Shown here piece by piece: positions 3,439 through 64,000 of a stretch of 64,000 bases of DNA (positions within the stretch are counted from its first letter, which is position 1; every line of letters begins with the position of its first letter). The notes below the pieces were generated by a model. That model was given only the letters and a program-made list of their open reading frames with translations, made no database searches and was not told where the DNA came from. Source of the stretch: Candidatus Saganbacteria bacterium (lineage in GTDB: Bacteria > Margulisbacteria > WOR-1 > XYC2-FULL-46-14 > XYC2-FULL-37-10); NCBI GenBank assembly GCA_016223245.1, contig JACRPL010000016.1, positions 1,128 to 65,127 of the forward strand. Direction: 5' to 3'. The position numbers were made by a program, and so were the translations under genes.

Positions 3439-3509
3439 GAGACTAGTTAGGAACCTGCGAGTGAACCCTGCCTGCCGGCAGGCACGGTTCGCGGTTCCTA
3501 ACTAGTCTC
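3439..3509. repeat. About 70-bp near-perfect palindromic element (arms actagttaggaacc, core gcctgccggcaggc); second copy at 39238
   Basis: The sequence gagactagttaggaacctgcgagtgaaccctgcctgccggcaggcacggttcgcggttcctaactagtctc is present. Confidence 0.85.
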
Positions 3510-3620
3510 ATATTGGCAGTTAGATAGAGTTGCCATTCGTAAGGAATGATTTTTGGCAAGTTTTTGTTATCGGTTGTTGATTGATGAAAAAGGGGGAAAA
3601 TTGATGAAAAAGGGGGGAAT

Positions 3621-5306
3621 ATGAAAAATAAAATACTAGTTTATTCGCTGTTAGTTGTAAGCTGTATGTTCCTGCTGTCTGCTGTCTCATTAGCGGAAAT
3701 ACCGAGGACTATTAATGTCCAGGGGCGTGTTAGCGATAAAGGCATTCCAATTTCTGACGGGAAATATCAAATGTCTGTTGACTTTACGGACAAAGATGGG
3801 AACACGATCGCAGATGGCACGGAAAAAATATTTAATGATAAAGAAATAAAGAATGGCATGTTTAATTTGCAAATTAATTTGACTGGTGCCAATGATTGGC
3901 AATTAAAATTTGATAAGCCTTATTGGGTTCTTGTTGAACTTCCGAACTTAGGCTTGAAGTTTTTGCAACCCTTAACCTCCGTTCCATACGCCTTAAACGC
4001 GGATAGCCTTGGCGGCCTCCCTGCGACTTCGTATGCCACAAAAGATGCAAGTGGAAAGATCATTGGCGCATCGGGAGATTTTGTGAAAAAGAGCGGGGAT
4101 GATATGAGCGGGGTACTTGGGATTTCAGCTAAGGATGAAACAGCGGCTTTACGCGTTACGGACGACAGGACGACTATTACTCCTCCATGGTTTGGAATAC
4201 CTTTTGGTGCTATTGCCGCCAAGGGCGATGGAACGGTTGGCTTAAGCGCATATAGTAAAAACAATATGGGGATTTATGCTAAATCAGATTCAAAGGCAGG
4301 AATATTTGGAGTTGGGAAAGAAGCAGGCGTACATGGTGAAAAATCCAATGATGTCTTTGGCGAGCTTGGGACTGCTCGTTATTTCGCAGGCGTTTATCCG
4401 CCCATGGGCGTTTTTGGAACATCAACGGATATAGGTATTTATGGCTCAGTGGGGGAATCCTCCAAAGCGACGACATTGTCAGGCAAAAAGATCCCGTCAA
4501 TTGGTGTTGCAGGCTGGTCGCCTGATGGGAGAGGGGTTAGCGGTGGAAGCTCCACTGGGAGTGGCGTCTATGGAAGTAGCTGGTATGAATTTCCGGATAC
4601 TAGCTTATGGGTAAACAATAAGGATTACGCAGCAGGTGGATATTTTGAAGCACAAAAAGGATTTGGAGTAATTGGAACTTCTTTTTCGAATAATGGCGGA
4701 AATGGTGGCGGAGTTTTGGGAAGAAGTTTGGATACAAACGATGTTGTATCAGGCTTTTTTGCGAAAAATTTTGGTGTTGCAGGAATTAGCAATAAAGGAA
4801 ATGGTGTTTTTGGCGTTAGCAGTATGAACGATGGAATTTATGGGTACTCGCATGATAAAAACCATGCTGGGGTCTACGCGACGAATGCTGCCGCCACAGG
4901 AAACGCGATAAAAGCAGATGGAAAAGTTCAAATTGGATCGACAAAGGACCAATATTATGCTGATGTTGTTTTGGAAATTAATAAAGGGAAAATACAAATA
5001 GATAACGAAAGTAAAACAACTACTGTTGGGCCTGCAGCTTATTCAATTCATAATGTGGAGATAAATAAAATCGTCGGGAAAGTAACATTAAACGCTTCCA
5101 ATTCCAATTCTTACAATGGCGTAACTGTAACTAATGGTTACGTGAAAAAAGATTCTATAATATTATTAACTATTTTTGACTCAAGCTTTTCTCCCGCATC
5201 GGCGCACGACCAAGCTCTAGTTATCACTAAGCAATATGATGGGGGCTTTGAAGTTGTTTTCAGGTCAAAGCCAATAGGTGGATTTAATTTTCTAGTGATC
5301 AATTAG
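3621..5306 (+). CDS. Glycine-rich fibre-like surface protein with signal peptide and tail-fibre-like KSGDDMSGVL motif (paralog family, subfamily B)
   Basis: It has a signal peptide, a PRTINVQGR motif, PYALNADSLGGLPATSY...KKSGDDMSGVLGI, GVxGxS-type glycine repeats and the C-terminal GGFNFLVIN shared with the 19375 gene. Confidence 0.6.
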   Translation: MKNKILVYSLLVVSCMFLLSAVSLAEIPRTINVQGRVSDKGIPISDGKYQMSVDFTDKDGNTIADGTEKIFNDKEIKNGMFNLQINLTGANDWQLKFDKPYWVLVELPNLGLKFLQPLTSVPYALNADSLGGLPATSYATKDASGKIIGASGDFVKKSGDDMSGVLGISAKDETAALRVTDDRTTITPPWFGIPFGAIAAKGDGTVGLSAYSKNNMGIYAKSDSKAGIFGVGKEAGVHGEKSNDVFGELGTARYFAGVYPPMGVFGTSTDIGIYGSVGESSKATTLSGKKIPSIGVAGWSPDGRGVSGGSSTGSGVYGSSWYEFPDTSLWVNNKDYAAGGYFEAQKGFGVIGTSFSNNGGNGGGVLGRSLDTNDVVSGFFAKNFGVAGISNKGNGVFGVSSMNDGIYGYSHDKNHAGVYATNAAATGNAIKADGKVQIGSTKDQYYADVVLEINKGKIQIDNESKTTTVGPAAYSIHNVEINKIVGKVTLNASNSNSYNGVTVTNGYVKKDSIILLTIFDSSFSPASAHDQALVITKQYDGGFEVVFRSKPIGGFNFLVIN

Positions 5307-5375: not shown

Positions 5376-6608
5376 ATGCAAGGTAAAAATAATGTTCTAA
5401 TTAGAAGCTTGGAAGAAGTAATTAATAATACAATAAAAGAGAAGCACTCCGCTCTTGTGTTCGGGCCGCGCCAGGTAGGGAAGACAACGCTAATAAAAAA
5501 GTGCCTATCAAAAACAGAAAATCTGGGATCGTATTATCTGCAAAACCCCGAAATACGGGAACAATTTGAGAAAGACCCTTCTTTGCTAATCCGCCAGGTT
5601 GAAGCTATTGACGGGAACCCGTATATTTTTGTCGATGAAGCCCAGAAGGTGCCGGAACTTTTTGACTCGATGCAGTACTTGATCGACGACAAAAAAGCGC
5701 AATTCTTGATCACGGGGTCTTCCGCTAGAAAATTGCGGAGGAAGGGAGCAAATATGCTTCCTGGCAGGGTGAAATCCTGCCGCTTAGACCCGCTAAATTG
5801 GGGCGAATTCGGATGGATAAAAGGAAGCCATATCAAGGAATTAAAAATTGACAATATCAATTCGAGAGTTGACTATTCGCTGGAAAAAATGCTTGTTTTC
5901 GGAGCCCTGCCCGGCATTGTATTGATCGAAGATGAAGAAGAAAGAAAGGATATCCTGAAATCGTATTCGAATATTTATTTGGAAGAAGAGATCAGGGCGG
6001 AATCCTTGAGCAGAAAGATCGGGGCATTTTCAAGGTTCCTGGAACTGTCGGCAAACGAATCGGGGACAAGCCCGAATCTGTCGAAGCTTTCAATGGAAGC
6101 AGGGGTAAGCGCTCCTGCCATCAAAGAATTTTATAACCTGCTTGTTGATACGCTTGTGGCTGAAAAAGTCGAACCATACCTGAAAAATGCGAGAAAAAGG
6201 ATACTATCATCGCCAAAATATTATTTCTTCGATATCGGGGCAAGAAATGCCGTGTCCAGGATGCCATTGAAAATGGAATTGGTAAATACGCAAAAAGGGA
6301 CGCTTTTTGAGCATGCTGTAATTCTGGAAATCATCAGAAGAATAAGAGTATTAGGCGAAAATTATAAAGTTTGTTTCTGGAGGACAAGTGGAGGGGCTGA
6401 AGTGGATTGTATCCTCGATCTTGGGGATAGAGTTGTACCTATAGAAATCAAGGCCAGCAAGAAGGTCGCATTATCCGAGGTTAAAGGCTTGGAAATATTT
6501 TTGAATGATTATCCCGAGGCCGAAAATATTGGTTTTGTAATTACCATGGGGGATAGGCCGGAGAAAATAACAGATAGAATAATTGCTGTTCCGTGGGATT
6601 ACATATAG
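5376..6608 (+). CDS. AAA-type ATPase of the COG1373 / DUF4143 family
   Basis: It has a Walker A motif (GPRQVGKTTL) and a Walker B motif (FVDEAQ), and its length and architecture are typical of COG1373. Confidence 0.6.
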   Translation: MQGKNNVLIRSLEEVINNTIKEKHSALVFGPRQVGKTTLIKKCLSKTENLGSYYLQNPEIREQFEKDPSLLIRQVEAIDGNPYIFVDEAQKVPELFDSMQYLIDDKKAQFLITGSSARKLRRKGANMLPGRVKSCRLDPLNWGEFGWIKGSHIKELKIDNINSRVDYSLEKMLVFGALPGIVLIEDEEERKDILKSYSNIYLEEEIRAESLSRKIGAFSRFLELSANESGTSPNLSKLSMEAGVSAPAIKEFYNLLVDTLVAEKVEPYLKNARKRILSSPKYYFFDIGARNAVSRMPLKMELVNTQKGTLFEHAVILEIIRRIRVLGENYKVCFWRTSGGAEVDCILDLGDRVVPIEIKASKKVALSEVKGLEIFLNDYPEAENIGFVITMGDRPEKITDRIIAVPWDYI

Positions 6609-6928: not shown

Positions 6929-8062
6929 TTGCAAATGTTGCCACGCTATTATCAGAATTTAGAGGAATATCTACATCCCAATAAGGTTTTGGTGATATAT
7001 GGTGCAAGGCAAGTTGGCAAAACTACGCTTCTCCAAACTTTTTTCAAGAATACTAAGCTTAAATATAAAATAGACTCTGGTGATAATATTAAGGTTCAGG
7101 AAATATTGGGTTCACAAGATTTTTCAAAAATATTGGATTACGCGTCAGGGTATCAGCTTATAGTATTGGATGAAGCGCAAAGGATCCCGAATATCGGAAT
7201 GGGGCTCAAGATTCTTGTCGATCAAATCCCGGGGATTCTAGTGATCGCTACAGGGTCTTCTTCTTTCGAGCTTTCCGGCCAAATTGGCGAGCCGCTAACC
7301 GGACGGAAAAGAACCCTTACAATGTATCCATTGTCCCAAATAGAGCTGCTCAAGCTATTTAATGCCCATGAATTAAATGAAAAGCTAGGCGAATGGCTCA
7401 TTTTCGGAGGATATCCAGCAGTCATTACTTCAAAAACAAGAGAAGAGAAAATTAGCGTACTTGAGGAATTGGTGAATTCCTATTTGTTGAAAGATATACT
7501 TGAACTCGAGAAAGTTAAAGGAGCCCAGGTGCTAGTTAATCTTCTCAGATTGCTTGCTTTTCAGGTTGGGAACGAGGTTTCTTTGTCCGAACTCGCGAAT
7601 AAATTGAATATTGATTATAAAACCGTGGCTCGGTATATAGACCTTTTTGAAAAAGCTTTTGTCCTATTTGGCTTGTCTGGATTTTCGAGGAATTTAAGGA
7701 AGGAAGTTACAAGGAAGAAGAAATATTATTTTTATGACAATGGCATCCGAAATGCCATCATTTCAAATTTTAATAATCTTGATATGCGCGATGACATAGG
7801 AAAATTGTGGGAGAACTTTTTAGTCTTAGAAAGGCTTAAAACACAGGAATATATGCAGGTACACGCAAATAACTATTTTTGGAGAACTTGGGACGGGAAG
7901 GAAATTGATTGGATCGAAGAGAGAGAAGGGAAACTCTTCGCTTATGAATTTAAATACAAAAAAGATAAAGTTGGCTTGCCTAAAGATTTTATAACCTCAT
8001 ATCCAAATTCGGCATGGGAAATAATAACATCTGATAATTATTTGCATTTTCTCCTGACTTAG
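6929..8062 (+). CDS. AAA-type ATPase of the COG1373 / DUF4143 family (second copy)
   Basis: It has Walker A (GARQVGKTTL) and Walker B (VLDEAQ) motifs. Confidence 0.6.
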   Translation: MQMLPRYYQNLEEYLHPNKVLVIYGARQVGKTTLLQTFFKNTKLKYKIDSGDNIKVQEILGSQDFSKILDYASGYQLIVLDEAQRIPNIGMGLKILVDQIPGILVIATGSSSFELSGQIGEPLTGRKRTLTMYPLSQIELLKLFNAHELNEKLGEWLIFGGYPAVITSKTREEKISVLEELVNSYLLKDILELEKVKGAQVLVNLLRLLAFQVGNEVSLSELANKLNIDYKTVARYIDLFEKAFVLFGLSGFSRNLRKEVTRKKKYYFYDNGIRNAIISNFNNLDMRDDIGKLWENFLVLERLKTQEYMQVHANNYFWRTWDGKEIDWIEEREGKLFAYEFKYKKDKVGLPKDFITSYPNSAWEIITSDNYLHFLLT

Positions 8063-8142
8063 GACACCCCCACTAATTGTGCAAAAGGCCGCGCATAAAA
8101 AAACCGTGCGAGGCGTTTCAATTATTCCTGCTGCACAATGGC

Positions 8143-8171
8143 TTGCCCCCCCCCCAGAAATATGCTATTAT
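8143..8171 (+). promoter_or_regulatory. Sigma70-like promoter TTGCCC-N17-TATTAT whose spacer contains a C10 homopolymer (8146..8155)
   Basis: The sequence ttgccccccccccagaaatatgctattat sits about 12 bp upstream of ATG 8183. Confidence 0.45.
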
Positions 8172-8182
8172 TTGCCAATAAG

Positions 8183-9874
8183 ATGAAAAGAGTATTGTAT
8201 ATTTTATTGGTCATATTATTGGCAATTAGCTCAAGCGCTTTTGCAGCTACCCCGCATATTATAACTGTCCAAGGCAGATTGTTGCGATCTGGCGGCATCC
8301 CCGTCAACGGAATTAAAACCGCGACCTTTATGATAATCGAGGAGCCAAATTTGTTATTATGGTTGAGCGATCCAATGCAAGTAACCCTAATAGCGGGTGT
8401 TTTTTCAGTTGATCTCGACTTGGATAAGGTTGATGACGAAAGCTTGAGCTCCCCGAATCTATTAACTTTTGATAAGCCTTGTAAAATAATTACTAATATT
8501 GATGGAACGGTTTTTGAACAAAAGATCGCTGCGGTTCCTTACGCCTTAAACGCGGAGAAACTTAACGGTATGAATATCACGAAATTTGCAACACTGGATG
8601 CGAGCGGCAATATTATCGGCGCGAAGGCGGAAAAGTATGTAAAAAAGACTGGCGATGTAATGAGCGGCGGGCTTATTATATCAAGCGGCGGGGCAGATTT
8701 TGGGCTAGTGGCGAGCGGTGAAATCGGGGGTGTTAAAGGAACATATCTGGACAATAGCGATGCTATTGGGATGCTTGGTTACGGCAAAAAGCTGGGATTT
8801 GCAATTGTTGAGGGGAAAAAAATCAGCAAGGGAACCGAATTTTATGGCGCATACGGTAAATTCACCGATCTCGCGCAAGGAGGTCTTGGCGTCCAATTCC
8901 CCGGGAAAAAATCGTTCGGAGCCTGGGGTGTCGGCGGCGTTGCTGGGGGTTATTTTGAAAGCCAAAGCGGATATGGCTTGATTGCGATCGCAAGCAATGG
9001 GTCCGAAGGCGGGGCTTTGGGCGGCTATAATGTATTTGATACATCTGATACTAAGTTTGGAGTTGCAGGAATAAGCGATTCTGGCAATGGAGTTTATGGC
9101 GATGGCGACGCGGCCTATGGCGGGGAAATAAACGGGATATTTAAGAAAGCCGGTGTTTTTGGAAAAGGCGGGGCTAAGACGAGCGGTGTTCTGGGGTATT
9201 CTGAAGTCGACAACCCAAATCGCGCAGGAGTTGTCGGTATCAATCCTAACGGATACGCGGGGATATTCTCCGGCATTAAAGGCATGAATGTATCAGGGTC
9301 TCTTGAGGTAAAAGGTGATATCCGAGGAATTGATTGGATAAGCTTTGCACCATTTGATAAAAATTGGCCTGCACCTTTCCCGACCGACCTGGCCGACACC
9401 GTGATAGGTTATTCGAGCGGCGGCATGTTTGAAGAAGCTGTTCAGGTTGTTTCTCCAACAGAATCAATGGACCCGTATATTGTCTTTGCAAGCTCCTATC
9501 TTAACACTCCTAAGAGAGGAAAGATATTGATCAAGGCAACAGGGACTGTTCAGACTTCGGATGACGGCAACTCTCCATTTTGGGTTTCGGTCAAGCTTTT
9601 ACAGACAACTTACCAAGGAACGACGAAGAAAGAATTGCCAGGCGATCTTATTACAGTGGCAGGCACAAAAGCCAGCAAGATATTCAAGTATCCGTTCACT
9701 GTACAGGGGATGTTTGATGTTTCATCTGGTTTCCCAACCTTGTTTAACCCTAATAACTACGCCGCGCTTATTAGCAATCAATTTACTTTATCTTGCGCCA
9801 TGAAAACTTACGGCGGAAAGCCTTTAAATATTACGGGAAACATTCAGGCAATTTATATGCCGAATATTAATTAA
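8183..9874 (+). CDS. Glycine-rich fibre-like surface protein (paralog family); likely start MKRVLYILLVILLAISSSAFA
   Basis: It has a signal peptide, TPHIITVQGRL, PYALNAEKLNG...KKTGDVMSGGLII and glycine repeats. The track ORF start at 8138 crosses the poly-C tract and lacks a signal peptide. Confidence 0.55.
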   Translation: MKRVLYILLVILLAISSSAFAATPHIITVQGRLLRSGGIPVNGIKTATFMIIEEPNLLLWLSDPMQVTLIAGVFSVDLDLDKVDDESLSSPNLLTFDKPCKIITNIDGTVFEQKIAAVPYALNAEKLNGMNITKFATLDASGNIIGAKAEKYVKKTGDVMSGGLIISSGGADFGLVASGEIGGVKGTYLDNSDAIGMLGYGKKLGFAIVEGKKISKGTEFYGAYGKFTDLAQGGLGVQFPGKKSFGAWGVGGVAGGYFESQSGYGLIAIASNGSEGGALGGYNVFDTSDTKFGVAGISDSGNGVYGDGDAAYGGEINGIFKKAGVFGKGGAKTSGVLGYSEVDNPNRAGVVGINPNGYAGIFSGIKGMNVSGSLEVKGDIRGIDWISFAPFDKNWPAPFPTDLADTVIGYSSGGMFEEAVQVVSPTESMDPYIVFASSYLNTPKRGKILIKATGTVQTSDDGNSPFWVSVKLLQTTYQGTTKKELPGDLITVAGTKASKIFKYPFTVQGMFDVSSGFPTLFNPNNYAALISNQFTLSCAMKTYGGKPLNITGNIQAIYMPNIN

Positions 9875-9877
9875 ATC

Positions 9878-11452
9878 ATGAAAAAATTATATAAATTAAT
9901 AATTACATTGTTGGTCATTGGCCATTGGTCATTGGTCATTATCGCACCGGCGGCCGCTATTCCCAACAAAATAATTAACATCCAGGGAAAACTGACGGAC
10001 GATCACAATAAGATCGTCAAAAGTGTAAAACAGATCCGTGTCAGCATGGTTGATTCGAACAATCAAAGCATTTGGATTTCGCCTGTTATCACCATAACGG
10101 TAAATAATGCCGGAATATTCAATGCTGAATTTGACCTATCTTCCGCAACAGGCGTTGATTTTAATTCGCCTTACAGCCTTATTATTAATGTTATCGATGA
10201 TGCCGACAAAGTTACGACTCTCAATCCGCAGTCTTTGACCTCTGTTCCTTATGCTTTAAATAGTGACAAATTTAACGGCCTTTCATCTTCGAGTTTTGTC
10301 GTGCTCGATGATTTTGGGGAAATTGCTGGTGAACTTGCGGGCAATGTTAAAAAATCCGGGGATTCAATGTCCGGGAGCCTCAAGATAACAGGCGGTGAAA
10401 GCGATGATTATGGCGTCGAGGCAAGCGGGTAGTCGGGCGCAGTGAAAGGGACATGGATAGGGGATAATAATTTCTTCGGGGTATTAGGCGGCTATAGTTA
10501 CAAATATGGGGACGATGTGTCTTTGCCCGGGGTGTATGGGCAGCATTCAAGTTATACTGGCGCTGCCAGAGGAGGCCTTGGCGTTATAAGAAATATTCTA
10601 TGGTCTTTTGGTGTTTGGGGAAAAGGGCTGACCGCGGGCGGATATTTTTCTAGCGCGAACGGGACAGGTGTCCTTGGAAAATCTACGGGAACCGGCGGAA
10701 TATTTGGCGCTTATAATTCAAATTCGACAACTGACAAGTATTATGGAGTCGCAGGTGTTAGCGTTGCAGGCAACGGGGTGTATGGCGAGATAACTAGCGA
10801 TACGTTTAGCAGCGAGTGGAAAGCAGGGGTTTACGGCAAAGGAGGCGCAAAAACCTCTGGAGTTATGGGATACACAACAACAGATAAAGACAATGCGGCG
10901 GCAATTGTCGGGATCAATCCAAAAGGATACGGAGGGGATTTTACAGGAAAAAACGGCGTAAAAATAAATGGGCCGCTTGAAGTTTCGGGCGGGATACAAG
11001 GCAAGGGGCTTCACTGGGCGGAAAAAGGAATTACCGCATCTAATTTTTTTACCAAGACAAGCATTGGCGGTTATTATTACCATAAAATGATCAAGCATAT
11101 ATATGTGACATTCCCATATTCAGGCTATGCCCTTGTTCAAGCAAGCGGCATATTCTCAAACAATGACGAAAGTTTTTCCCAAATGTCCGCGCAAATAACC
11201 GACAACGAGTATTTGGATCCTGACGGAAAAAACTTTATTATTGATGGATCGGTCGCTGTTGTGGGATTAACAAATCCAACTGGGCAAGGATTCTATCCAT
11301 CGTTTCCATTTGCGTCATCAAGGGTTTTTGGAGTGGAAGGAGGCAAGTCGTATCATTTTCATTTGATCGGATTTCTAAAAACAACGAAAAGCGACGTTAA
11401 ATTTAATTTTGATGGCGCCCTTAATTGCATGTTCTTCTCGAGGAAATACTGA
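9878..11452 (+). pseudogene. Fibre-like surface protein paralog interrupted by an in-frame TAG at 10430..10432
   Basis: The ORFs 9878..10432 and 10442..11452 are in the same frame and the paralog alignment runs straight through the stop (GVEASG*SGAVKGTWIG versus GIESSGKTAGVKG). Confidence 0.5.
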
Positions 11453-11453
11453 T

Positions 11454-13007
11454 ATGAAAAGATTATCTATGAATATAATTATTACATTGTTGGTCATTTA
11501 TCATTGGTCATTTGTCATTTGTGCGCCTGCGCGCGCGGATGTCCCCAAAATAATGAATATCCAAGGCAAATTGACCGATCCGAATTCCAAGGCTGTTTCC
11601 GGGGCCAAAAAATTAAGATGTTCTCTGGTTGACAATAAAGGCGCGGCTGTTTTCAATTCTAAGGTTTATGATATCCCGCTAAATAGCGACGGAGTGTTCA
11701 ATGTGGATATTGACATATCTTCCACTCTCGCAGATTTTAATTCGCCATATACTTTGAATATTATTATTATCAATGAAGACGGGTCGACTTCTATTCTTGA
11801 GCCTAAGGCTCTAACTTCCGCACCATATGTATTAAATGCCGGAATGCTCGGAGGGCTTAAGCCCGCCTCTTTTGCGGCAAAAGATGCGGATGGCAAAATA
11901 GTCGGGTCGGTCGCCGGTTATGTCAAAAAAAGCGGGGATGAAATGAGCGGGGGCTTAAAAGTGAACGCCGGTAAATCTAATTTCGGGATCGAATCAAGCG
12001 GAAAAACGGCAGGGGTCAAAGGTTTATCGGCTTCAAGCGGCGATAGGTGGGGAGCGCTTGGCGGAGAGAATTATGGCGTTTACGGTCAGTCAACGGCTAA
12101 TGCGATAGGCATAATAGGCGTTTATGGCGTTTATGGCGTTTATGGCTCTGGAAAAACGTTTGGAGGGTATTTTCAAAGTTCAACAGGTATTGGCGCTATC
12201 GGGAAAACAACCGGCGCTAATGGCGGAGTGTTTGGCGGATACAACACCGCAGAGGCTAATGATAAATGGTTTGGGGTTGCAGGGGCAAGCGATTCGGGAA
12301 ACGGGATATATGGCGAAGTAGCCAGTAATACTTTGGACAGCGATTGGAAGGCCGGAGTTTACGGCAAGGGGAGCAATACGACGAGCGGAGTTTTTGGATA
12401 TACTGATTCAACGAGTGGCGCAGGCGTTAAGGGCGTAGATAATAGCGGATATGGGGCGATATTTTCGGGGGAAAAGGGCGTAAAAGTCGACGGACCTGTA
12501 AATATTTCAGGGACAATTACCGCAAACAATTTGCCGGGAATTGCTTACGATAACTATTTTAATTTTTCTAATACCAATCTAAAGTCGAGCACGGCAGTAA
12601 TCATTAAATCTGTTGAAATAGATGTGCCTGCTCCCGGGTATATATTGGTCCAATCAAGCGGAACCTTGTATTCATACGCCACTACCGATGTTTTAATTGG
12701 CTTAGGAATACTTAATATTGATAATTTCTCTTCTCAAGTCTTTTATGATGTATACTTTGGGACAAATCCATTGGTTTCGTATGTTTTTCTAGCGGATAAT
12801 TCGAAATTTAATTTTTCATGCCAGTTTGAAGCAAAAAAATCGATGGGCCCCAATATATATTTCCCATTTTCTACAAGCAATGTATTTGAAACGAAAACTG
12901 CCGGCAAACAAAAGTTTTATTTGACGGGATATCTTAAACATTCTGCTTCTTCCGGCCGATTAGATGTTTCAGGCTCGATACAAGCTATCTATTTCCCAAG
13001 CAAGTAG
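11454..13007 (+). CDS. Glycine-rich fibre-like surface protein (paralog family, subfamily A)
   Basis: It begins MKRLSMNIIITLLVIYHWSFVICAPARA, then PKIMNIQGKL, PYVLNAGMLGG...KKSGDEMSGGLKV and repeats such as GVYGVYGVYG. Confidence 0.6.
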   Translation: MKRLSMNIIITLLVIYHWSFVICAPARADVPKIMNIQGKLTDPNSKAVSGAKKLRCSLVDNKGAAVFNSKVYDIPLNSDGVFNVDIDISSTLADFNSPYTLNIIIINEDGSTSILEPKALTSAPYVLNAGMLGGLKPASFAAKDADGKIVGSVAGYVKKSGDEMSGGLKVNAGKSNFGIESSGKTAGVKGLSASSGDRWGALGGENYGVYGQSTANAIGIIGVYGVYGVYGSGKTFGGYFQSSTGIGAIGKTTGANGGVFGGYNTAEANDKWFGVAGASDSGNGIYGEVASNTLDSDWKAGVYGKGSNTTSGVFGYTDSTSGAGVKGVDNSGYGAIFSGEKGVKVDGPVNISGTITANNLPGIAYDNYFNFSNTNLKSSTAVIIKSVEIDVPAPGYILVQSSGTLYSYATTDVLIGLGILNIDNFSSQVFYDVYFGTNPLVSYVFLADNSKFNFSCQFEAKKSMGPNIYFPFSTSNVFETKTAGKQKFYLTGYLKHSASSGRLDVSGSIQAIYFPSK

Positions 13008-13504: not shown

Positions 13505-13620
13505 TTTTTCACCCAAAATAATTTTAGCATATATTTCTGATCGAGTCAAAAAGGGATTGGAATTGAGTCCATCCGTCCCTATCTTTTTTATGTTATAATT
13601 TATAGACTTAGGAGCTGATT

Positions 13621-13890
13621 TTATGCGAAGCGATAATATTAAAAAAATGGGGCCGCCCCGCGCCTTAGTCCACCGGCCTTCCTGCCATTTGTGATTGGAT
13701 CGCCATGGGACACAAGGGGATGCATTATTCTCTGCCATCGAGAGAACTCATAGCAGACACAGTTGAAACAGTAGCCGAAGCCCATCAATTAGATGGTCTT
13801 ATTTTGCTAACTGCTTGCGACAAGATAACACCCGGGATGCTTATGGCGGCGGCACGGTTGAATATCCCTTCTATGTTAATCATTGTTGTA
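13621..13890 (+). pseudogene. Degenerate duplicated 5' fragment of ilvD ([11 protein letters not shown]... fused to ...[66 protein letters not shown])
   Basis: It is about 90% identical at the DNA level to 15129..15183 and 15337..15540, and the atgttataatt promoter motif upstream is also duplicated. Confidence 0.8.
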
Positions 13891-14233
13891 GCCAGGCTTG
13901 ATAAAGTTATGGGAGAGTTGGAGAAATTCCGCGAAGATAGGGTTCTCGCAAAGAAAAAAGACGACGACCAGGACGAGAAATTGGCGGCGCATGAAAAGAG
14001 ATTGCTTCGCGTTGAGTCAAAGGTTGGAGTTTAGAACCGGATACCCAGGGAATTTGGATAATAGGAACAATAATTTTTTCCAAATAACCTAATCTCCCAA
14101 TTCCCAGTCGCAAATTTCCCAATTACCAAATTTCCTCGACAACGCGATTGCCCAAAAACCGCATCATTATGGTATAATTCACAAAAGAAGAGAAAAAAGG
14201 TATGACGCTATTAGTTGAGGCCAGGGCTTCAGC

Positions 14234-14587
14234 GTGATTTGTTCAGCCGCGCTCGGGGTAAAGGAAAAAAAGATGGACGAAGAAATAAAAAATATAACAA
14301 AGCGGATCGCCGAAAAATTTAATCCCAGAAAACTCATTCTCTTTGGCTCGTCTGCTTTAGGTGCGAGAAAAGAAAATAGCGATGTGGATTTATGCGTAGT
14401 TAAAGACTATATCCAAGATCGGACAATGGATTCAGTCGCGATCAGGAAAATTATTGGGAAAAATTTGATACCTTTTGATATTGTAGTTTTAGGCAGAGAT
14501 GAATATGACAGCCGGAAAAATATTTGGGGAACTTTGCAGTATGAGATAGATAAAAAGGGAATAGTTCTTTATGAGCGCAGAGATTGA
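14234..14587 (+). CDS. Nucleotidyltransferase-domain protein (MNT-type antitoxin/toxin component)
   Basis: It has the LILFGSSALGARKENSDVDLCVV motif (GS...D.D). Confidence 0.6.
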   Translation: MICSAALGVKEKKMDEEIKNITKRIAEKFNPRKLILFGSSALGARKENSDVDLCVVKDYIQDRTMDSVAIRKIIGKNLIPFDIVVLGRDEYDSRKNIWGTLQYEIDKKGIVLYERRD

Positions 14588-14957
14588 AAAAGAGAAAGCC
14601 GTAATAATAGGCGAATGGGAGCGGAGAGCGCTTGATGACCTTGTATCGGCGGAAATCATATTGAAGGAGAGCGATAAATATGAGATTTCCGTCTATCATT
14701 CGCATCAGGCAGTTGAAAAATTTTTGAAAGCAAACCTGTTAAAACTGGGGCAAACATTTAAATTCACCCACGATATTGATGTTTTGTTCGAACAAGTTTT
14801 TGGCGATGATAAAGATAAGGCGGCAGCCGAAAAAATCGCCCATCTTAACGCTTTATATCCGTCTTTAAGATATCCCTTTGGGGAAAAGATAACCAAGGAC
14901 CAGGCGATTAATTGCCTGGCGATAGCAAAAGAAGCGATTAGCCGGTTGCGAAAATAG
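14571..14957 (+). CDS. HEPN-domain protein (partner of the MNT at 14234)
   Basis: It overlaps the MNT gene and carries HSHQAVEKFLKANL, matching the HEPN R/H..EK.LKA signature. Confidence 0.55.
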   Translation: MSAEIEKEKAVIIGEWERRALDDLVSAEIILKESDKYEISVYHSHQAVEKFLKANLLKLGQTFKFTHDIDVLFEQVFGDDKDKAAAEKIAHLNALYPSLRYPFGEKITKDQAINCLAIAKEAISRLRK

Positions 14958-15128: not shown

Positions 15129-16772
15129 ATGCGAAGCGATAATATTAAAAAAATGGGGCCGACCCGCGCCTTAGTCCACGCGACAGGCGTTTCTGATAAA
15201 GAACTTTCAAAACCATTTATCGGCCTTGCTTCCTCATTTACCGACTTGGTGCCGGGGCATGTTGATATGCGATCGCTTGAAAGAGTTATAGAAAAAGGGA
15301 TACATGCCGGCGGCGGAGTTTCATTCACATTCGGCCTTCCTGCCATTTGTGATGGGATCGCCATGGGACACAAGGGGATGCATTATTCTCTGCCATCGAG
15401 AGAACTCATAGCAGACACTGTTGAAACAGTCGCAGAAGCCCACCAATTGGATGGTTTAATATTGCTCACCGCTTGCGACAAGATAACACCCGGAATGCTA
15501 ATGGCGGCCGCGCGATTAAATATCCCTTCTATTATAGTTACAGCAGGCCCAATGCTCGCAGGTTGTTATAAAGGCGAGAGGCTTGATCTTGTCCACGACG
15601 CTTTCGAGGCAGAAGCGGCTTACAAGCAGAAAAAAATATCAAAAAAAGATTTCGATAGTTTAATTTTAAGCGCGTGTCCCGGAGCCGGTTCGTGTTCCGG
15701 TTTATTTACCGCAAATACTATGGCCTGTGCGACGGAAGCGATGGGAATGTCCTTGCCATTCTGCGGGACATCCCTTGCCGTATCTTCCAAGAAAAAAATG
15801 ATCGCCTATGAAAGCGGCAAAAGGATAGTTGAGTTGGTATCCGAAAATCTTACTCCAAGAAAGATCATGAACATGAACTCATTCATGAATGCGATACGCA
15901 TCGATATGGCGCTTGGCGGATCGACGAATGCTGTATTGCATCTGACAGCGATCGCGCAGGAAGCGGGGATCGATCTGACGCTTGATATATTTGACAAGAT
16001 AAGCCGTGAAACCCCGCATATTACAAATATCCGCCCCGGCGGAAACCATTTTATGGAGGATTTTGAGAATGCCGGCGGCATTCCCGCCGCTTTTTCCGTC
16101 CTTCAAAAACTCTTGAAAGATAATCCAACAGTTTCAGGGATGTCGGTCAAACAGATCGCAAAATCTGGAGTTGTTTATGATCGCGAAGTCATAAAAACAT
16201 TGGACAATCCGTATCATAAGCAAGGAAGCCTCGCCGTTCTTAAAGGAAACATCGCTCCTGAAGGGGCAGTTGTAAAACAAACCGCGGTTTCACAGAAAAT
16301 GATGAAATTTTCGGGAGAAGCGATTGTTTTTGATTCCGAAGATGCGGCGCAAAAAGCGATCGTTTCCGGTAAAGTCAAAAAAGGGCATGTTGTTGTCATA
16401 AGATATGAAGGGCCAAAAGGCGGACCCGGGATGCGGGAGATGCTTTATCCAACATCGGCTATCGCCGGTATGGGGCTTTCTGATTCAGTCGCATTAATTA
16501 CTGATGGGCGATTTTCCGGTGGAACAAGAGGTCCATGCATTGGCCACGTCGCGCCGGAAGCCGCTTTAGGCGGACCGATCGCGGCTGTAAAAAATGGGGA
16601 CGTTATTGATATAGATATTCCGAACAGGAGAATAGAGTTGCGGGTAACGAGCAGCGAGTTGAAAAAACGATTGGCGGCTGTAAAACCGCATGAGCCGAAG
16701 ATCAAAGCCGGGTGGCTTGCGAGATATCAGAAGCTTGTAACTTCGGCAAGTGTGGGCGCTATACTTAAGTAG
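15129..16772 (+). CDS. ilvD: Dihydroxy-acid dehydratase
   Basis: It contains [19 protein letters not shown] and [11 protein letters not shown], and is the length of a full IlvD/Edd enzyme. Confidence 0.9.
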
Positions 16773-19374: not shown

Positions 19375-21225
19375 ATGAAAAAATTAATATTGTTCCTGGC
19401 CCTGTGCTCTGCTTTCTGCTTTCTGCTGTCTGCTGTCTTATTTGCCGATGTGCCGAGGACAATAAATATCCAGGGGCGATTGACGCAAAAAGATGGCGCG
19501 CCGATAAAAGACGGCCACTATGATTTCACGTTTTTCTTGGTAGATGAAAATAACAACTTCATGTCAACGATACTTAACGGTATAAACCCGATAGTAAATA
19601 ATACAAACAAGCAAACTCTTACTATAGATAAAAATGGGATATTCAATGCAATCCTTGAATTTGATCCAACATTTAGTTTTGATCCCGCTGTTTATCAGAT
19701 CAAAAAAATTGTTTTGGTTTCCAATGTCATAATTGACCCAGGTCAGCCCAAGGGGGTTGGCTTTGCGCAAGATATTACAGCTGTCCCTTATGCGATAAAT
19801 GCTGCAAATGCCGATAAGATCGGCGGAAAAACTTTTGATGAAGCGCTAAAAGCAAGTGGTGTTTCCGTAGGCGGTGGAGGCGTTGTTAACGAAAAATTTG
19901 ATCATTTGTATGTTGGCGATCAAAACAAAAATCATATAACTATGGTACCGCAAGGCAATAGTCTGGCTATATATGCTAAAGGAAATTATGTTGGCATTAA
20001 TGCTGTTGGTTATAGTTTTGGCGGAACATTTGAAGCTGATCCTGTTAAAGGAGTAGGGGTTTCTGGAGCTGGTGGAATTGGCGTGCAGGGCATTGGCGCA
20101 ACATATGCTGGTGGTATTTTTTATGGGCCAAATATAGGCGTTTTCGGTGCGTTATCTAGCGGACCACAAAATGGAAATAATTATGGCGTCTTAGGTGTAA
20201 CGTCTATTGCTGCTGGGAAGTATCTTCCTGGCACCATTAATTCTTATGGGGTTGCAGGAGTATCAGATACGGGAACTGGCGTTTTCGGAAAGAGCGATCA
20301 ATGGATAGCGATAGATGCAAAAACTAACTCGACAAAAGTTGAAGTGGCGGCTGTACATGGAGAAGCATCCAATTTTAAAGTGTTTGGCGAACTTGGGGTA
20401 TCCCGTTATTTCGCAGGCGTTAATCCGCCCATGGGCGTATTTGGAACATCAACGGATATTGGCGTTTATGGTTCCGTCGGAGATTCCACCAAAGTGACGA
20501 CATTGTCAACAAAAAACATCCCATCAATTGGTGTAGCTGGCTGGTCGCCAGATGGGAGAGGCGTGAGCGGGGGCAGCAGTAGCGGGACGGGGGTGTTTGG
20601 GGTCTCACAAGATGGTCTAGGCGGCAAATTTGAAAGCAAAAGCAGTGATGGTATTCATGCTTCGGGTATTTATGGAGTGTATGGCCTAAGTACTTCAAAA
20701 GATGGGATAGGAATATATGGCGCAAATGTTAATGGTATTGGAGTTAGAGGATGGAGCAGTACATCTATTGGAGGAAAATTTGAAAGTGTGAATGATGCAG
20801 GAATTTCAGGATATAGCATGAAAAGCAATGGCGTCCATGGGATTAGCGATCAATCATACGGTGTCTATGGAATTAGCAAAAGCGATTTAACCGCCGGAGT
20901 GCGCGCGCAAAACCAAAATGGCGGCCCCGCATTGTTTGTTGACGGCCCAATTCAAATGCCTGCAGGCAACGCCTCTGTAACTAGCGGCTCGCCCACAGCG
21001 ACAATAAATAAGGCTGTTGGCAGGGTAAATATTTCCGGGACATCCCAGTTTGATGTAACGGTAAATAATTCTTATGTGCATAAGGATTCTATTATATTAT
21101 TGACTATAATAAATTCTAATTCTAATTATGATCAGGCTGTGACGATCAAAAATCAAGTTAACGGGGCATTTACTGTCGGGTTCCGCTCAATAACTCAAGG
21201 GTTCAATTTTCTTGTTATAAATTAA
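19375..21225 (+). CDS. Glycine-rich fibre-like surface protein (subfamily B paralog of 3621)
   Basis: Its signal peptide is encoded by (CTGCTKT)n heptamers. It has VPRTINIQGRL and VPYAINAANADKIGG, and shares 'ELGxxRYFAGVxPPMGVFGTSTDIGxYGSVG' and the C-terminal FNFLVIN with the 3621 gene. Confidence 0.6.
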   Translation: MKKLILFLALCSAFCFLLSAVLFADVPRTINIQGRLTQKDGAPIKDGHYDFTFFLVDENNNFMSTILNGINPIVNNTNKQTLTIDKNGIFNAILEFDPTFSFDPAVYQIKKIVLVSNVIIDPGQPKGVGFAQDITAVPYAINAANADKIGGKTFDEALKASGVSVGGGGVVNEKFDHLYVGDQNKNHITMVPQGNSLAIYAKGNYVGINAVGYSFGGTFEADPVKGVGVSGAGGIGVQGIGATYAGGIFYGPNIGVFGALSSGPQNGNNYGVLGVTSIAAGKYLPGTINSYGVAGVSDTGTGVFGKSDQWIAIDAKTNSTKVEVAAVHGEASNFKVFGELGVSRYFAGVNPPMGVFGTSTDIGVYGSVGDSTKVTTLSTKNIPSIGVAGWSPDGRGVSGGSSSGTGVFGVSQDGLGGKFESKSSDGIHASGIYGVYGLSTSKDGIGIYGANVNGIGVRGWSSTSIGGKFESVNDAGISGYSMKSNGVHGISDQSYGVYGISKSDLTAGVRAQNQNGGPALFVDGPIQMPAGNASVTSGSPTATINKAVGRVNISGTSQFDVTVNNSYVHKDSIILLTIINSNSNYDQAVTIKNQVNGAFTVGFRSITQGFNFLVIN

Positions 21226-45789: not shown

Positions 45790-46504
45790 AGACAGCTATT
45801 TGCCCATATTTAATGACTTTTCCCTGATAAATAATGATATATGGATAAGCGCCGTTGCCGACTTGCGATCCAAAATCGGTATTTCCGTTCCATGAGACCT
45901 CGTTGTATCCCTGTCTGCCGCCGAGCCCAACACCCGCCGAGTCCTGTGCTCCTGCAGTTCCGGTCAGGCGCTTTACCATATTTCCGTTAAGATCATAGAT
46001 ATTTATTGATGTGTCGCCGTCGTCGGTCAAAGTATATGTGATCTTTGTTGTTTCGCCGTGAAGCGGCTTAAAAGGGTTTGGATAATTCATTGCATTGCCG
46101 GTGACAGTTACAGTTCCTAGGACCGAAACCGAAAATGTCGACGTGGAAGTTTCGGCCCCAAGGTTATTTGCGCTAACTTGGATTATATGGGAGCCTTTAT
46201 CGAGCGCCGAAGTTACAGTATACGTTGCCTCATAGGATGTTTGTCCTTCGGTTGTGGGAGATATTGTGAAAGTTTTAATGCCGCCATCGATCGTAAGAGA
46301 GATCGTCATTTTATTAATGCCTGTCGCGTCTGAAATTTTTGCGGAAATTATTGGGAGCCGTCTTACCGTTGTGCCGGCGGAAAGAGTTACTCCGTCCGTA
46401 TAAATTGTTATAGTTGGAGCGGCGACCGCTTGCGCGGTAATGACCAATGACCAATAACCAATGACCAATAATGAAAATATTATAATAGCAAATATCTTTT
46501 TCAT
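45782..46504 (-). CDS. Secreted protein with LLVIGYWSLVI signal peptide and FlgD-Ig-like C-terminal domain
   Basis: A (TTGGTCA)n heptamer repeat encodes the signal peptide, and the C-terminus reads ...YNEVSWNGNTDFGSQVGNGAYPYIIIY. Confidence 0.5.
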   Translation of the reverse strand: MKKIFAIIIFSLLVIGYWSLVITAQAVAAPTITIYTDGVTLSAGTTVRRLPIISAKISDATGINKMTISLTIDGGIKTFTISPTTEGQTSYEATYTVTSALDKGSHIIQVSANNLGAETSTSTFSVSVLGTVTVTGNAMNYPNPFKPLHGETTKITYTLTDDGDTSINIYDLNGNMVKRLTGTAGAQDSAGVGLGGRQGYNEVSWNGNTDFGSQVGNGAYPYIIIYQGKVIKYGQIAVYD

Positions 46505-46570: not shown

Positions 46571-48450
<1,880 letters not shown>

Positions 48451-54739: not shown

Positions 54740-55698
54740 GAAAAAGAACAGCAATATATTTTGTTCTAGCCGGACTTGTGGTCGCTTCGATCATTTCCCT
54801 TTTTCTTGGCCCTGTCTTTGTCCCCCCCCAATATATTTTAAAAAGCGAGATCTTGTGGCAAATAAGAATCCCACGCGTTCTTCTTTCGGCGCTAGTCGGC
54901 ATGATGCTTGGCCTCTCCGGTGTCATGCTTCAAGGGATATTGCGAAATCCGTTAGCCGATCCATATATTCTTGGGGTATCGTCTGGCGCAGGAGTTGGAG
55001 CAGCAACTGCATTAGCGCTAAAACTTAATTTTGTATTTCTCGGGATGAGCTCGGTCCCGATCCTTGCTTTTATTTTTGCGATCATCGCGGTTCTCGTGGT
55101 TTATAGGTTATCTTACGTTTCCGATCGGAGCTCTCCTGAAGCCTTGATACTTGGCGGCGTAGCTGTCTCCGCTTTTGCATCGGCAATACTTGCTTTAATA
55201 ATTATCGTTTCAGGCCAGCTTCAATCGATCTATTTCTGGCTTTTAGGATCGTTATCAATGGCCTCATATGTTGATGTTGCGACTTTGATACCGTATTTGT
55301 CAATTGGTTTGGTAGTAGCGTATTTTCACTCAAAAGAATTAAATGTTCTTCTGCTTGGCGAAGATATGGCTCTCACTATGGGCGTCGAAGTTTCAAAGAT
55401 AAGATTTCTAATGATAGTTACCGCAACACTTATGACTGCGGCGGCAGTTTCGGTTTCAGGTCTTATCGGATTTGTCGGACTTATCGTCCCACACTTTGTA
55501 AGGCTAACAATTGGCCCCAACCATAGGTCTTTGATCCCGATGTCGGCCCTTGGCGGCGCATTGCTCATGGTGGTTGCCGATTCAATAGGCAGAACGGTTT
55601 TCACTCCGGTTGAAATGCCGATAGGGATCGTAATGGCGCTTGTCGGAGCGCCATTTTTTCTATATATCCTGAAAAAGCGGAGACTTGGCAAGAAATGA
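54736..55698 (+). CDS. FecCD/BtuC-family ABC transporter permease
   Basis: It is a multi-TM protein with LGPVFVPPQYIL...RIPRVLLSALVGMMLGLSG. Confidence 0.7.
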   Translation: MRKRTAIYFVLAGLVVASIISLFLGPVFVPPQYILKSEILWQIRIPRVLLSALVGMMLGLSGVMLQGILRNPLADPYILGVSSGAGVGAATALALKLNFVFLGMSSVPILAFIFAIIAVLVVYRLSYVSDRSSPEALILGGVAVSAFASAILALIIIVSGQLQSIYFWLLGSLSMASYVDVATLIPYLSIGLVVAYFHSKELNVLLLGEDMALTMGVEVSKIRFLMIVTATLMTAAAVSVSGLIGFVGLIVPHFVRLTIGPNHRSLIPMSALGGALLMVVADSIGRTVFTPVEMPIGIVMALVGAPFFLYILKKRRLGKK

Positions 55699-60682: not shown

Positions 60683-61032
60683 ATAACGCGCTGCGCTCGT
60701 AATGACCAATGACAAATTTCCAATGACCAACATTGTATCGCTTCGCGATAATTATAATAAATACATTGTTGGGATTTGGTCATTAATAAGTATATCAGAA
60801 TTTCTTTTACAATTCACCCTGCGCCTCGATTGCTCATGCAATGGTCAGGGCTTTTTCGAGTCTGGTTTCCTCGTTGGTAACTGGGCCTCAAGCAGAATAT
60901 ATCTTCGCCAAATTGATTATCTTATCATATCCTTCGACATTCAGGTTGACACATGAAGCAACAACATTTTTTAAGGTTTTTACGTGATATTCGCTTGACA
61001 AAATCGCGGACTCGAGGGCGGCTTTATAAATT

Positions 61033-62453: not shown

Positions 62454-64000
62454 CTATCGTGCAAGGGACCTAAAAATTTCATTTAGGCCCAAATATTCTT
62501 TATTCATGGAAGCAATGGCTTCCGCCCCCCCCTTTTTTTCAGAGTCAGAAAACGCATTTCGGAGCGCTTCCATCTTGTTCTTTATAGCCTCCGCTTTGAG
62601 GGAATTGATGCAGTCGGAGAGTATGAGTTCCCGGTCTTCCAAGGGTTCCTCGCTTAACATTATCTCCCGTAATATTTTGCCTTCATCAGTATTCGCCAGG
62701 TTTTCCAAGACAACATTTGCCGGGCTTTCAAATATTTTCTTTGCGAGTTCTTCGTATCGTCCAAAATTCTCTAACTGCAATTCATCTTTTATCCTAACGG
62801 TTGCTTCATCCCACTCGATCATTAATCTGATCAATTTTTTCTGTGCTTCAATAACTTTTGAAGATGGCTTTGCCGTTGTCCGCCGCAGACTGCTTCTTGC
62901 CCTATAAAAAGAATATTTGCTTTTAACTTCGCCTTCAAGCAATTCGGCCGAAATCCCGATCAACTGTGACGCTAGCTTTATGTATTCGCTTTGCAGTATC
63001 TTGTCTTTTTCGTCCGATAGGATCGCGGATGCTTCATGGGCTGCGCGCGCGCGAGCTTCCGCTTCATTCAAATTAAAGCGCCCGATAACGCGCCTAAGTT
63101 TAAATTCAAGGGCAGGGCATGATGCTTTTACGCTTTCGATAAAGGCTTCTTTTCCGGATCTCTTTATCATCTCATCTGGATCTTTAGCGTCTTTTAGTTG
63201 AGCAATTCTTATTCGAACATCAGCTTCTTTTAGGATTTCTTGTGCGCGTTCGGTTGCCGCAACTCCCGCGGGATCCGCATCAAAAGCCAAGACCACCATA
63301 TCGGAAAATCTCTTTATAAGCTTTGCCTGCCTTGGCGTGAAGGCCGTCCCAAGAGGCGCTATGACATTTTTTATTCCCGCCTCATAAATTGATATGACAT
63401 CCACGTTGCCTTCAACCACAAGCGCGAACTTTTGCTGTTTTATCGCATCTTTTGCAAGCCCCAAATTGTACAAGTTGTCCCCTTTGACAAAAATTTCCGA
63501 ATCGGGAGAGTTCAAATATTTCGGCTCCTCGTTATTAAGAGCGCGTCCCGAAAATCCGACGACTCTGTTCCTATGGTCTGTTATCGGGAATATCAGGCGA
63601 TCGCGAAAACGGTCGTAATATCCTTGAGCGTTCGGCCTCGGGATTATAAGCCCAAGTTTTAACAGATCCTCAAGTTTCGCACCGCGGGACAATAAATATT
63701 TGGAGATTGCGTCCCAAGAATTCGGCGCGAACCCGAGCCTGAACAATTTTGGATCGGCGATCCCGCGTTTTTTTATATATTCATTAGCCCCATCGATATT
63801 TAATTCAAAGAACTCGCATGCCGCTTCCGCAAGAGCGTATAAATGATTTTTTTGTTCCCTGTTTTTTTCGTCGTAAGCCGATCTTTCGATATGGACCCCG
63901 ATCTTGTCGCCTATGATCTCTGCCGCCTGCAAAAAATCGGTATTTTCCATCTTCATGACGAAAGTAAAGACATTTCCTCCTGCGCCACAGCCGAAGCAAT
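62454..64000 (-). CDS. dnaG: DNA primase DnaG (the N-terminus runs off the window end)
   Basis: It has the TOPRIM region (...[15 protein letters not shown]...), and zinc-finger residues [13 protein letters not shown] are encoded at the window edge. Confidence 0.8.

Follow-up and report, generated by a model that had tools for sequence, protein, structure and literature searches.

A run of ten cytosines lies across the candidate promoter of a row of three genes for surface fibres in the genome of an uncultured Saganbacterium, where it may tune the transcription of the whole row. The tract, at positions 8146-8155 of the forward strand, is read in ggcTTGCCCcccccccagaaatatgcTATTATttgccaataagATG (sequence 8140-8185); positions refer throughout to the window, that is, the whole 64-kb stretch of DNA that was analysed. 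It falls in the sole intergenic gap ahead of the secreted fibre gene that heads the three-gene row (paralogs B, C and D, Table 1). Judged by its sequence, the element at 8143-8171 is the most probable sigma-70-type promoter of the genes at 8183-13007 and would be the one in active use. To a genuine promoter-tuning function of the tract for the three-gene fibre operon we give slightly less than an even chance. The reading as phase variation, in which the tract would change in length and thereby affect transcription, is plausible and makes a credible candidate.

A preliminary description of this DNA had placed ten C's at 8146 to 8155, within the arrangement TTGCCC-N17-TATTAT upstream of 8183, and reading of the sequence bears out the tract, the geometry and every coordinate. 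C10 is the longest G/C homopolymer of the window, followed by two C8 runs (54822-54829 and 62525-62532), while runs of G do not exceed six. A first-order Markov model predicts 0.014 runs of at least ten C's in 64 kb; the tract is of a slippage-prone length and is longer than chance would give. An incidental tract, variable in length or not but devoid of regulatory effect because an extended -10 works without a -35 or because the true promoter lies elsewhere, is somewhat unlikely. Against it stand the roughly 70-fold excess over the expectation for the whole window and the location of C10 exactly between the hexamers of the only good promoter candidate ahead of the surface-protein operon, a placement that is the hallmark of known contingency loci; on the other side, the two C8 runs sit in ordinary coding sequence of this genome.

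The length of the tract could also be an artefact of sequencing or assembly, the true run being shorter or interrupted, given that the source is a metagenome-assembled genome and that homopolymers are error-prone on some platforms. This is highly improbable. The tract lies well within a contig of 91.6 kb, away from its ends, and the sole other assembly with the region, an independently assembled 4.8-kb Logan contig (SRR12113407) built possibly from the same reads, has C10 with identical flanks. Hence, the tract is no quirk of one assembler, although the agreement bears on assembler artefact and not on minority length variants. The occurrence of C10 in both available assemblies is also what an incidental tract would give.

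The candidate promoter consists of TTGCCC (8143-8148), a 17-nt spacer (8149-8165) and TATTAT (8166-8171), with the ATG of the first fibre gene at 8183. C10, located 28-37 nt upstream of this ATG, provides three bases at the 3' end of the -35 candidate and seven at the 5' end of the spacer. The promoter scan scored the element 9/12, with a TG before the -10. It had been described as near-consensus, and the motif is indeed present at that score, but the wording was generous, as 9/12 matches are frequent (7 per 1.1 kb vs 2.9 in shuffles). The composite pattern TTG-N17-TGnTAnnnT is found at five sites on both strands of the window, against 2.45 expected; for the gene's strand of the 120-nt intergenic region the expectation is about 0.002, by our own arithmetic done post hoc. 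Since the composite is scarce in the window, a single copy in the 120-nt gap is unlikely to arise by chance. A second site of this kind, TTGACTcgatcagaaatatatgcTAAAAT at 13521-13549 (-), is located just past the point where the fibre row ends, with a spacer similar to that of the promoter at 8143 (cagaaatat..gcta). A sigma-54 promoter was rejected by eye, the GG at 8140-8141 having CC, not GC, at -12. The window holds no second copy of 8156-8182, the segment just 3' of the tract, and no Rfam family was found at or near the tract.

Table 1. Features of the fibre locus and related elements, in window positions.
Feature	Position	Strand	Remarks
Fibre paralogs A and E	3621-5306, 19375-21225		Paralog comparison
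Two DUF4143/AAA_14 ATPase genes	5376-6608, 6935-8062		Upstream of B
GC-rich hairpin, then GTTTCAATTATT	8088..8115	+	After upstream DUF4143 ATPase gene; from fold; weak terminator candidate
In-frame upstream extension MACPPPRNMLLFANK	8138..8182	+	Reads the tract as CPPP codons and joins MKRV...; not supported as coding
Candidate -35 hexamer TTGCCC	8143..8148	+	4/6 to TTGACA; last three bases in tract; promoter scan
C10 homopolymer, candidate slippage-prone tract	8146..8155	+	Longest G/C run in window; Logan contig L001 also C10
Candidate extended -10 TGcTATTAT	8163..8171	+	5/6 to TATAAT plus TGn; promoter scan, composite pattern count
Inverted repeat TTGCCAATAAgATGA (8172-8186) / TCATaTTATTGGCAA (8211-8225), 15 nt, one mismatch	hairpin 8168..8229	+	Repeat list (I20), RNA fold
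Fibre paralog B, 563 aa (NCBI HZC34_06185)	8183..9874	+	Signal peptide MKRVLYILLVILLAISSSAFA cleaved before A; MAT-type N-terminal domain, Gly-rich shaft, TNF-like C-terminal tip
Fibre paralog C	9878..11452	+	Begins 3 nt past B; in-frame TAG 10433-10435
Fibre paralog D	11454..13007	+	Begins 1 nt past C
30-nt heptamer element	1489-1518, 9911-9940, 11490-11519, 46439-46468, 60701-60730	+, +, +, -, -	Found in window

The promoters of neighbouring genes help to evaluate this geometry. Canonical promoters stand 6 nt ahead of ATG 5376 (TTGACA-17-TATACT) and 8 nt ahead of ATG 6935 (TTGACA-16-TGnTATGAT), and closeness of the -10 to the start codon is therefore normal in this genome. In many genes a TATAAT-like -10, often TGn-extended, ends 5-8 nt 5' of the start codon, for instance at 5376, 6935, 26394, 46580, 51771, 59534, 59006 (-) and 46504 (-); a TGnTAnnnT lies 6 nt from the start at 46580, 51771, 59534 and 59006 (-). 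Shine-Dalgarno sequences are rare among the window genes, and this scarcity, together with the -10 elements placed close to the starts, suggests that many mRNAs of this Saganbacterium are leaderless or nearly so. At 8183 the distance from the end of the -10 to the ATG is 11 nt, compared with 5-8 nt in the clear leaderless cases, and the implied leader of about 4-6 nt, without a Shine-Dalgarno sequence, is odd. The 11-nt spacing is unusual yet inside the range of the TGn promoters of the window (6 to 22 nt). With these caveats, the sequence makes the promoter credible in this genome.

The extended -10 also determines how much could be expected from a change in the tract. Promoters of this type have a lower need for a -35 element, as an established rule, and among the eight TGn promoters of the window, four match the -35 consensus at just two of six positions. 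Spacer length may therefore have little effect at 8183, and these promoters count in favour of an incidental tract. Because the -10 carries the TGn extension, a one-base change of the spacer would more probably tune transcription than switch it.

The tract might act instead at the level of RNA or translation, within a transcript that originates upstream, either by read-through past the hairpin at 8088-8115 or at a weak promoter, for instance CACAAT (8134-8139). Ribosomes on a short ORF from ATG 8138 would then open a hairpin that hides the start codon at 8183. The terminator scan called no terminator-like site after the upstream gene, and since the hairpin at 8088-8115 fails the scanner criteria, read-through from the ATPase gene is possible. 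The consequences of tract length for the reading frame can be followed directly in the sequence: with C10, ATG 8138 shares the frame of the fibre ORF; a tract of C9 would close the short ORF at a TGA overlapping ATG 8183 (ATGA), and one of C11 would close it at the TAA 8179-8181. The RNA hairpin at 8168-8229 (-17 kcal/mol, z -2.75) buries ATG 8183 and overlaps the -10. An RNA beginning at 8178 shows no unusual fold, and the hairpin therefore needs a transcript start upstream of the proposed -10. Noticed post hoc, this hairpin is the main internal evidence against the 8143-8171 promoter, and its weight is modest: the geometry fits the best consensus match, while the hairpin hints at a start further upstream.

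Several points make an action at the RNA level improbable. The MK(R/K) signal peptide is where paralogs C and D, as well as the NCBI annotation, begin, and the 15-residue extension is absent from every paralog, for which reason the segment 8138-8182 is not regarded as coding. Ribosomes would reach 8183 at all three tract lengths, so that no clear off state would exist. The upstream -10 candidates are poor. Finally, the hairpin was singled out after viewing the repeat list, and its 3' arm is also constrained by the coding of the signal peptide. The inverted repeat, whose 5' arm adjoins the proposed -10, could serve as an operator or in the control of translation. In a more exotic variant of the proposal, the tract would decide whether the protein is extended in frame at its N-terminus or whether an upstream ORF terminates and unmasks the hairpin-hidden start codon. 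An intragenic, translational frameshift switch was rejected: the supported start at 8183 is 3' of the tract, which lies inside the ORF only through the unsupported 15-codon extension from ATG 8138. Tuning at the promoter remains the preferred reading for C10.

The gene that this promoter would control first was described beforehand as a fibre gene, and the designation is supported by the signal peptide, the MAT-type N-terminal domain and the TNF-like tip of its product, which is a predicted surface-exposed structure. The product of 8183-9874 is identical to the NCBI hypothetical protein HZC34_06185 of a Candidatus Saganbacteria metagenome-assembled genome, whose annotated start is ATG 8183. 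Searches of the fibre proteins against Pfam and PDB sequences gave no match. A profile built from paralogs B, C and D retrieved 2130 protein clusters, most of which have only the first ~150 positions in common. The NCBIfam family NF053851 (Bdello_MAT_N, 'mosaic adhesive trimer family chimeric fiber protein') matched protein B with an E-value of 3.9e-5 and 23.5 bits, under the curated cut-off of 60 bits, while 49 of the 60 relatives aligned also gave a match, with 3e-16 as the best E-value. Through their N-terminal domain the fibre proteins are related to the 'mosaic adhesive trimer' (MAT) fibres of Bdellovibrio. By sequence comparison, in which B scores below the curated cut-off, a predicted MAT-type domain of about 130 aa, rich in beta structure, directly follows the signal peptide.

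In the AlphaFold2 model, residues ~22-125 of B are predicted as beta-rich, most 10-residue blocks having a pLDDT of 91-97 with dips to 66-80. The Gly-rich shaft (residues ~150-400), modelled as a monomer, reaches block means of 37-62 only, a poor result that is expected for the monomer of a trimer. Residues 410-560 would form a beta sandwich, modelled with moderate confidence, that resembles trimeric TNF-like lectins such as BC2L-C-N (2wq4; E 1e-5, TM 0.62 on target). Paralogs B, C and D differ most at the C-terminus. The proteins would hence end in a variable, independently folding tip, which for B is seen in a moderate-confidence model.

B is separated from C by 3 nt and C from D by 1 nt; consequently, a single promoter at 8143-8171 would serve all three genes. 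Paralogs C and D are 34-37% identical to B. The TAG within paralog C (EASG*SGAVKG) stands where E or K is found in the other paralogs; either C is a nonsense-mutated pseudogene or the codon is a sequencing error. Five MAT-like fibre paralogs with mosaic relationships lie within 18 kb (3621-5306, 8183-13007 and 19375-21225). A and E have in common a C-terminal half, at 41% identity, that is absent from B, C and D. The two DUF4143 ATPase genes are inserted between paralogs A and B. Paralog A is preceded (3581-3620) by a tandem duplication of 20 nt, TTGATGAAAAAGGGGG(G)AA x2, with runs of G5 and G6 immediately 5' of the ATG, and further upstream by a perfect 17-nt inverted repeat (3439-3455 / 3493-3509), inside whose palindrome the Logan contig breaks. 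On the other side of the row, an N-terminal ilvD fragment (13705-14034) is followed by a pair of small ORFs (14234-14957) and by a full-length ilvD (15129-16772), an arrangement beside the fibre cluster that looks like a duplication or insertion scar. The ORF pair is taken for a nucleotidyltransferase/HEPN pair by analogy with locus L002 of another organism, where such a pair follows the fibre gene. No phage similarity was found in the region.

A 30-nt element, TTGGTCATTGGnnATTGGTCATTGGTCATT, made of about 4.3 copies of the heptamer TTGGTCA, has five occurrences in the window where none is expected. In four genes it is located 33-36 nt past the ATG and codes for the signal-peptide core LLVIG(N/H/Y)WSLVI; these are fibre paralogs C and D and the genes of two proteins seemingly unrelated in the region compared. 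The fifth copy lies 18 nt upstream of tRNA-Glu, in the form of a 21-codon mini-ORF. The element is conserved at the DNA level. The heptamers were rejected as a real switch, the repeats being interrupted and their number equal in all five copies.

The tract was also sought in relatives. Protein-pattern scans of genome and metagenome contig collections confirmed no close relative, and neither collection contained a match to exact DNA patterns with a tract of C6 to C14. A word-indexed protein search returned only B itself when B was the query and nothing when its N-terminal domain alone was used; exact-protein look-ups gave nothing for fibres B, C and D, and one Logan contig only for the upstream ATPase. 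Five distant loci of other organisms (L002 to L006) that carry fibre homologs, too far removed to serve as a test, lack G/C runs of seven or more upstream of the fibre gene. From this absence the tract appears to be particular to this locus rather than general in the family; that no sampled homologous locus has such a run is one more point in favour of an incidental tract.

Taking the promoter-tuning reading as the preferred one, we propose the following mechanism. In replication, a G/C run of ten would be expected to gain or lose a base via slipped-strand mispairing. The anchored TTG would then stand 16 or 18 nt from the -10 instead of 17, and the strength of the promoter would change for all three fibre genes (8183-13007). 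As the -10 is extended (TGn), the outcome would likely be graded, a 'volume control' and not a strict on/off switch. Slippage switches of this kind usually control genes for surface adhesins. Saganbacteria are a sister lineage of Cyanobacteria. The complete proposal, that in an uncultured environmental Saganbacterium a poly-C promoter tract varies how strongly an entire operon for mosaic adhesive fibres like those of Bdellovibrio is expressed, is tentative, possible rather than probable. If true, it would mean that bet-hedging over cell-surface or partner/prey recognition also occurs beyond the host-adapted pathogens known for such switches, and it would link contingency control to fibres of the MAT type. 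Should the tract vary and tune the operon, slippage-based contingency control of adhesins would extend to a little-known, non-pathogenic candidate phylum; the mechanism itself being textbook, the gain would be in breadth and not in principle.

In Neisseria meningitidis, the sigma-70 promoters of the genes for the outer-surface proteins PorA (poly-G) and Opc (poly-C) contain a homopolymer between or overlapping the -35 and -10 elements, whose length sets the spacer and gives rise to graded expression. The locus described here resembles porA and opc in that the homopolymer overlaps the -35 and spacer of a candidate sigma-70 promoter of a surface-protein gene. It differs in that those genes belong to host-adapted pathogens with many such loci, whereas here a single tract is found in 64 kb of an uncultured environmental lineage.

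As to the product, the MAT proteins of Bdellovibrio bacteriovorus are described as surface fibres (PMC10769870). According to this description and to NF053851, the proteins studied here have in common with them a signal peptide, a conserved beta-rich N-terminal domain of ~130 aa, a shaft and a swappable C-terminal tip, as well as the presence of several paralogs per genome. They differ in the score of protein B (23.5 vs 60 bits for the cut-off), in that no S74 domain was found, in the Gly-rich shaft and in the host, since Saganbacterium is not a known predator. Control of MAT fibres by simple sequence repeats is not mentioned in the passages of PMC10769870 consulted.

By analogy, the nearest relative of the arrangement appears to be the C-stretch of the Bordetella fimbrial promoters. 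Changes in C-stretch length alter transcription from the fim2, fim3 and fimX promoters, C7 and C8 in fimX differing 3.8-fold in transcript (PMC1891110). In the same study, tracts located 21-80 nt upstream of a start codon ranked as the likeliest to overlap promoters, and C10, at 28-37 nt, is inside this range. As in the fim genes of B. pertussis and B. bronchiseptica, a poly-C tract is placed 5' of the -10 in the promoter of a surface-filament gene. In Bordetella, however, the tract separates the site of the activator BvgA from the -10, and both its variation and its effect were measured, whereas in Saganbacterium it lies between a weak -35 and an extended -10 and is known from sequence alone. 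The poly-C promoter switch proposed here is, hence, a candidate addition to the mechanism represented by the Bordetella fim C-stretch and by Neisseria porA and opc.
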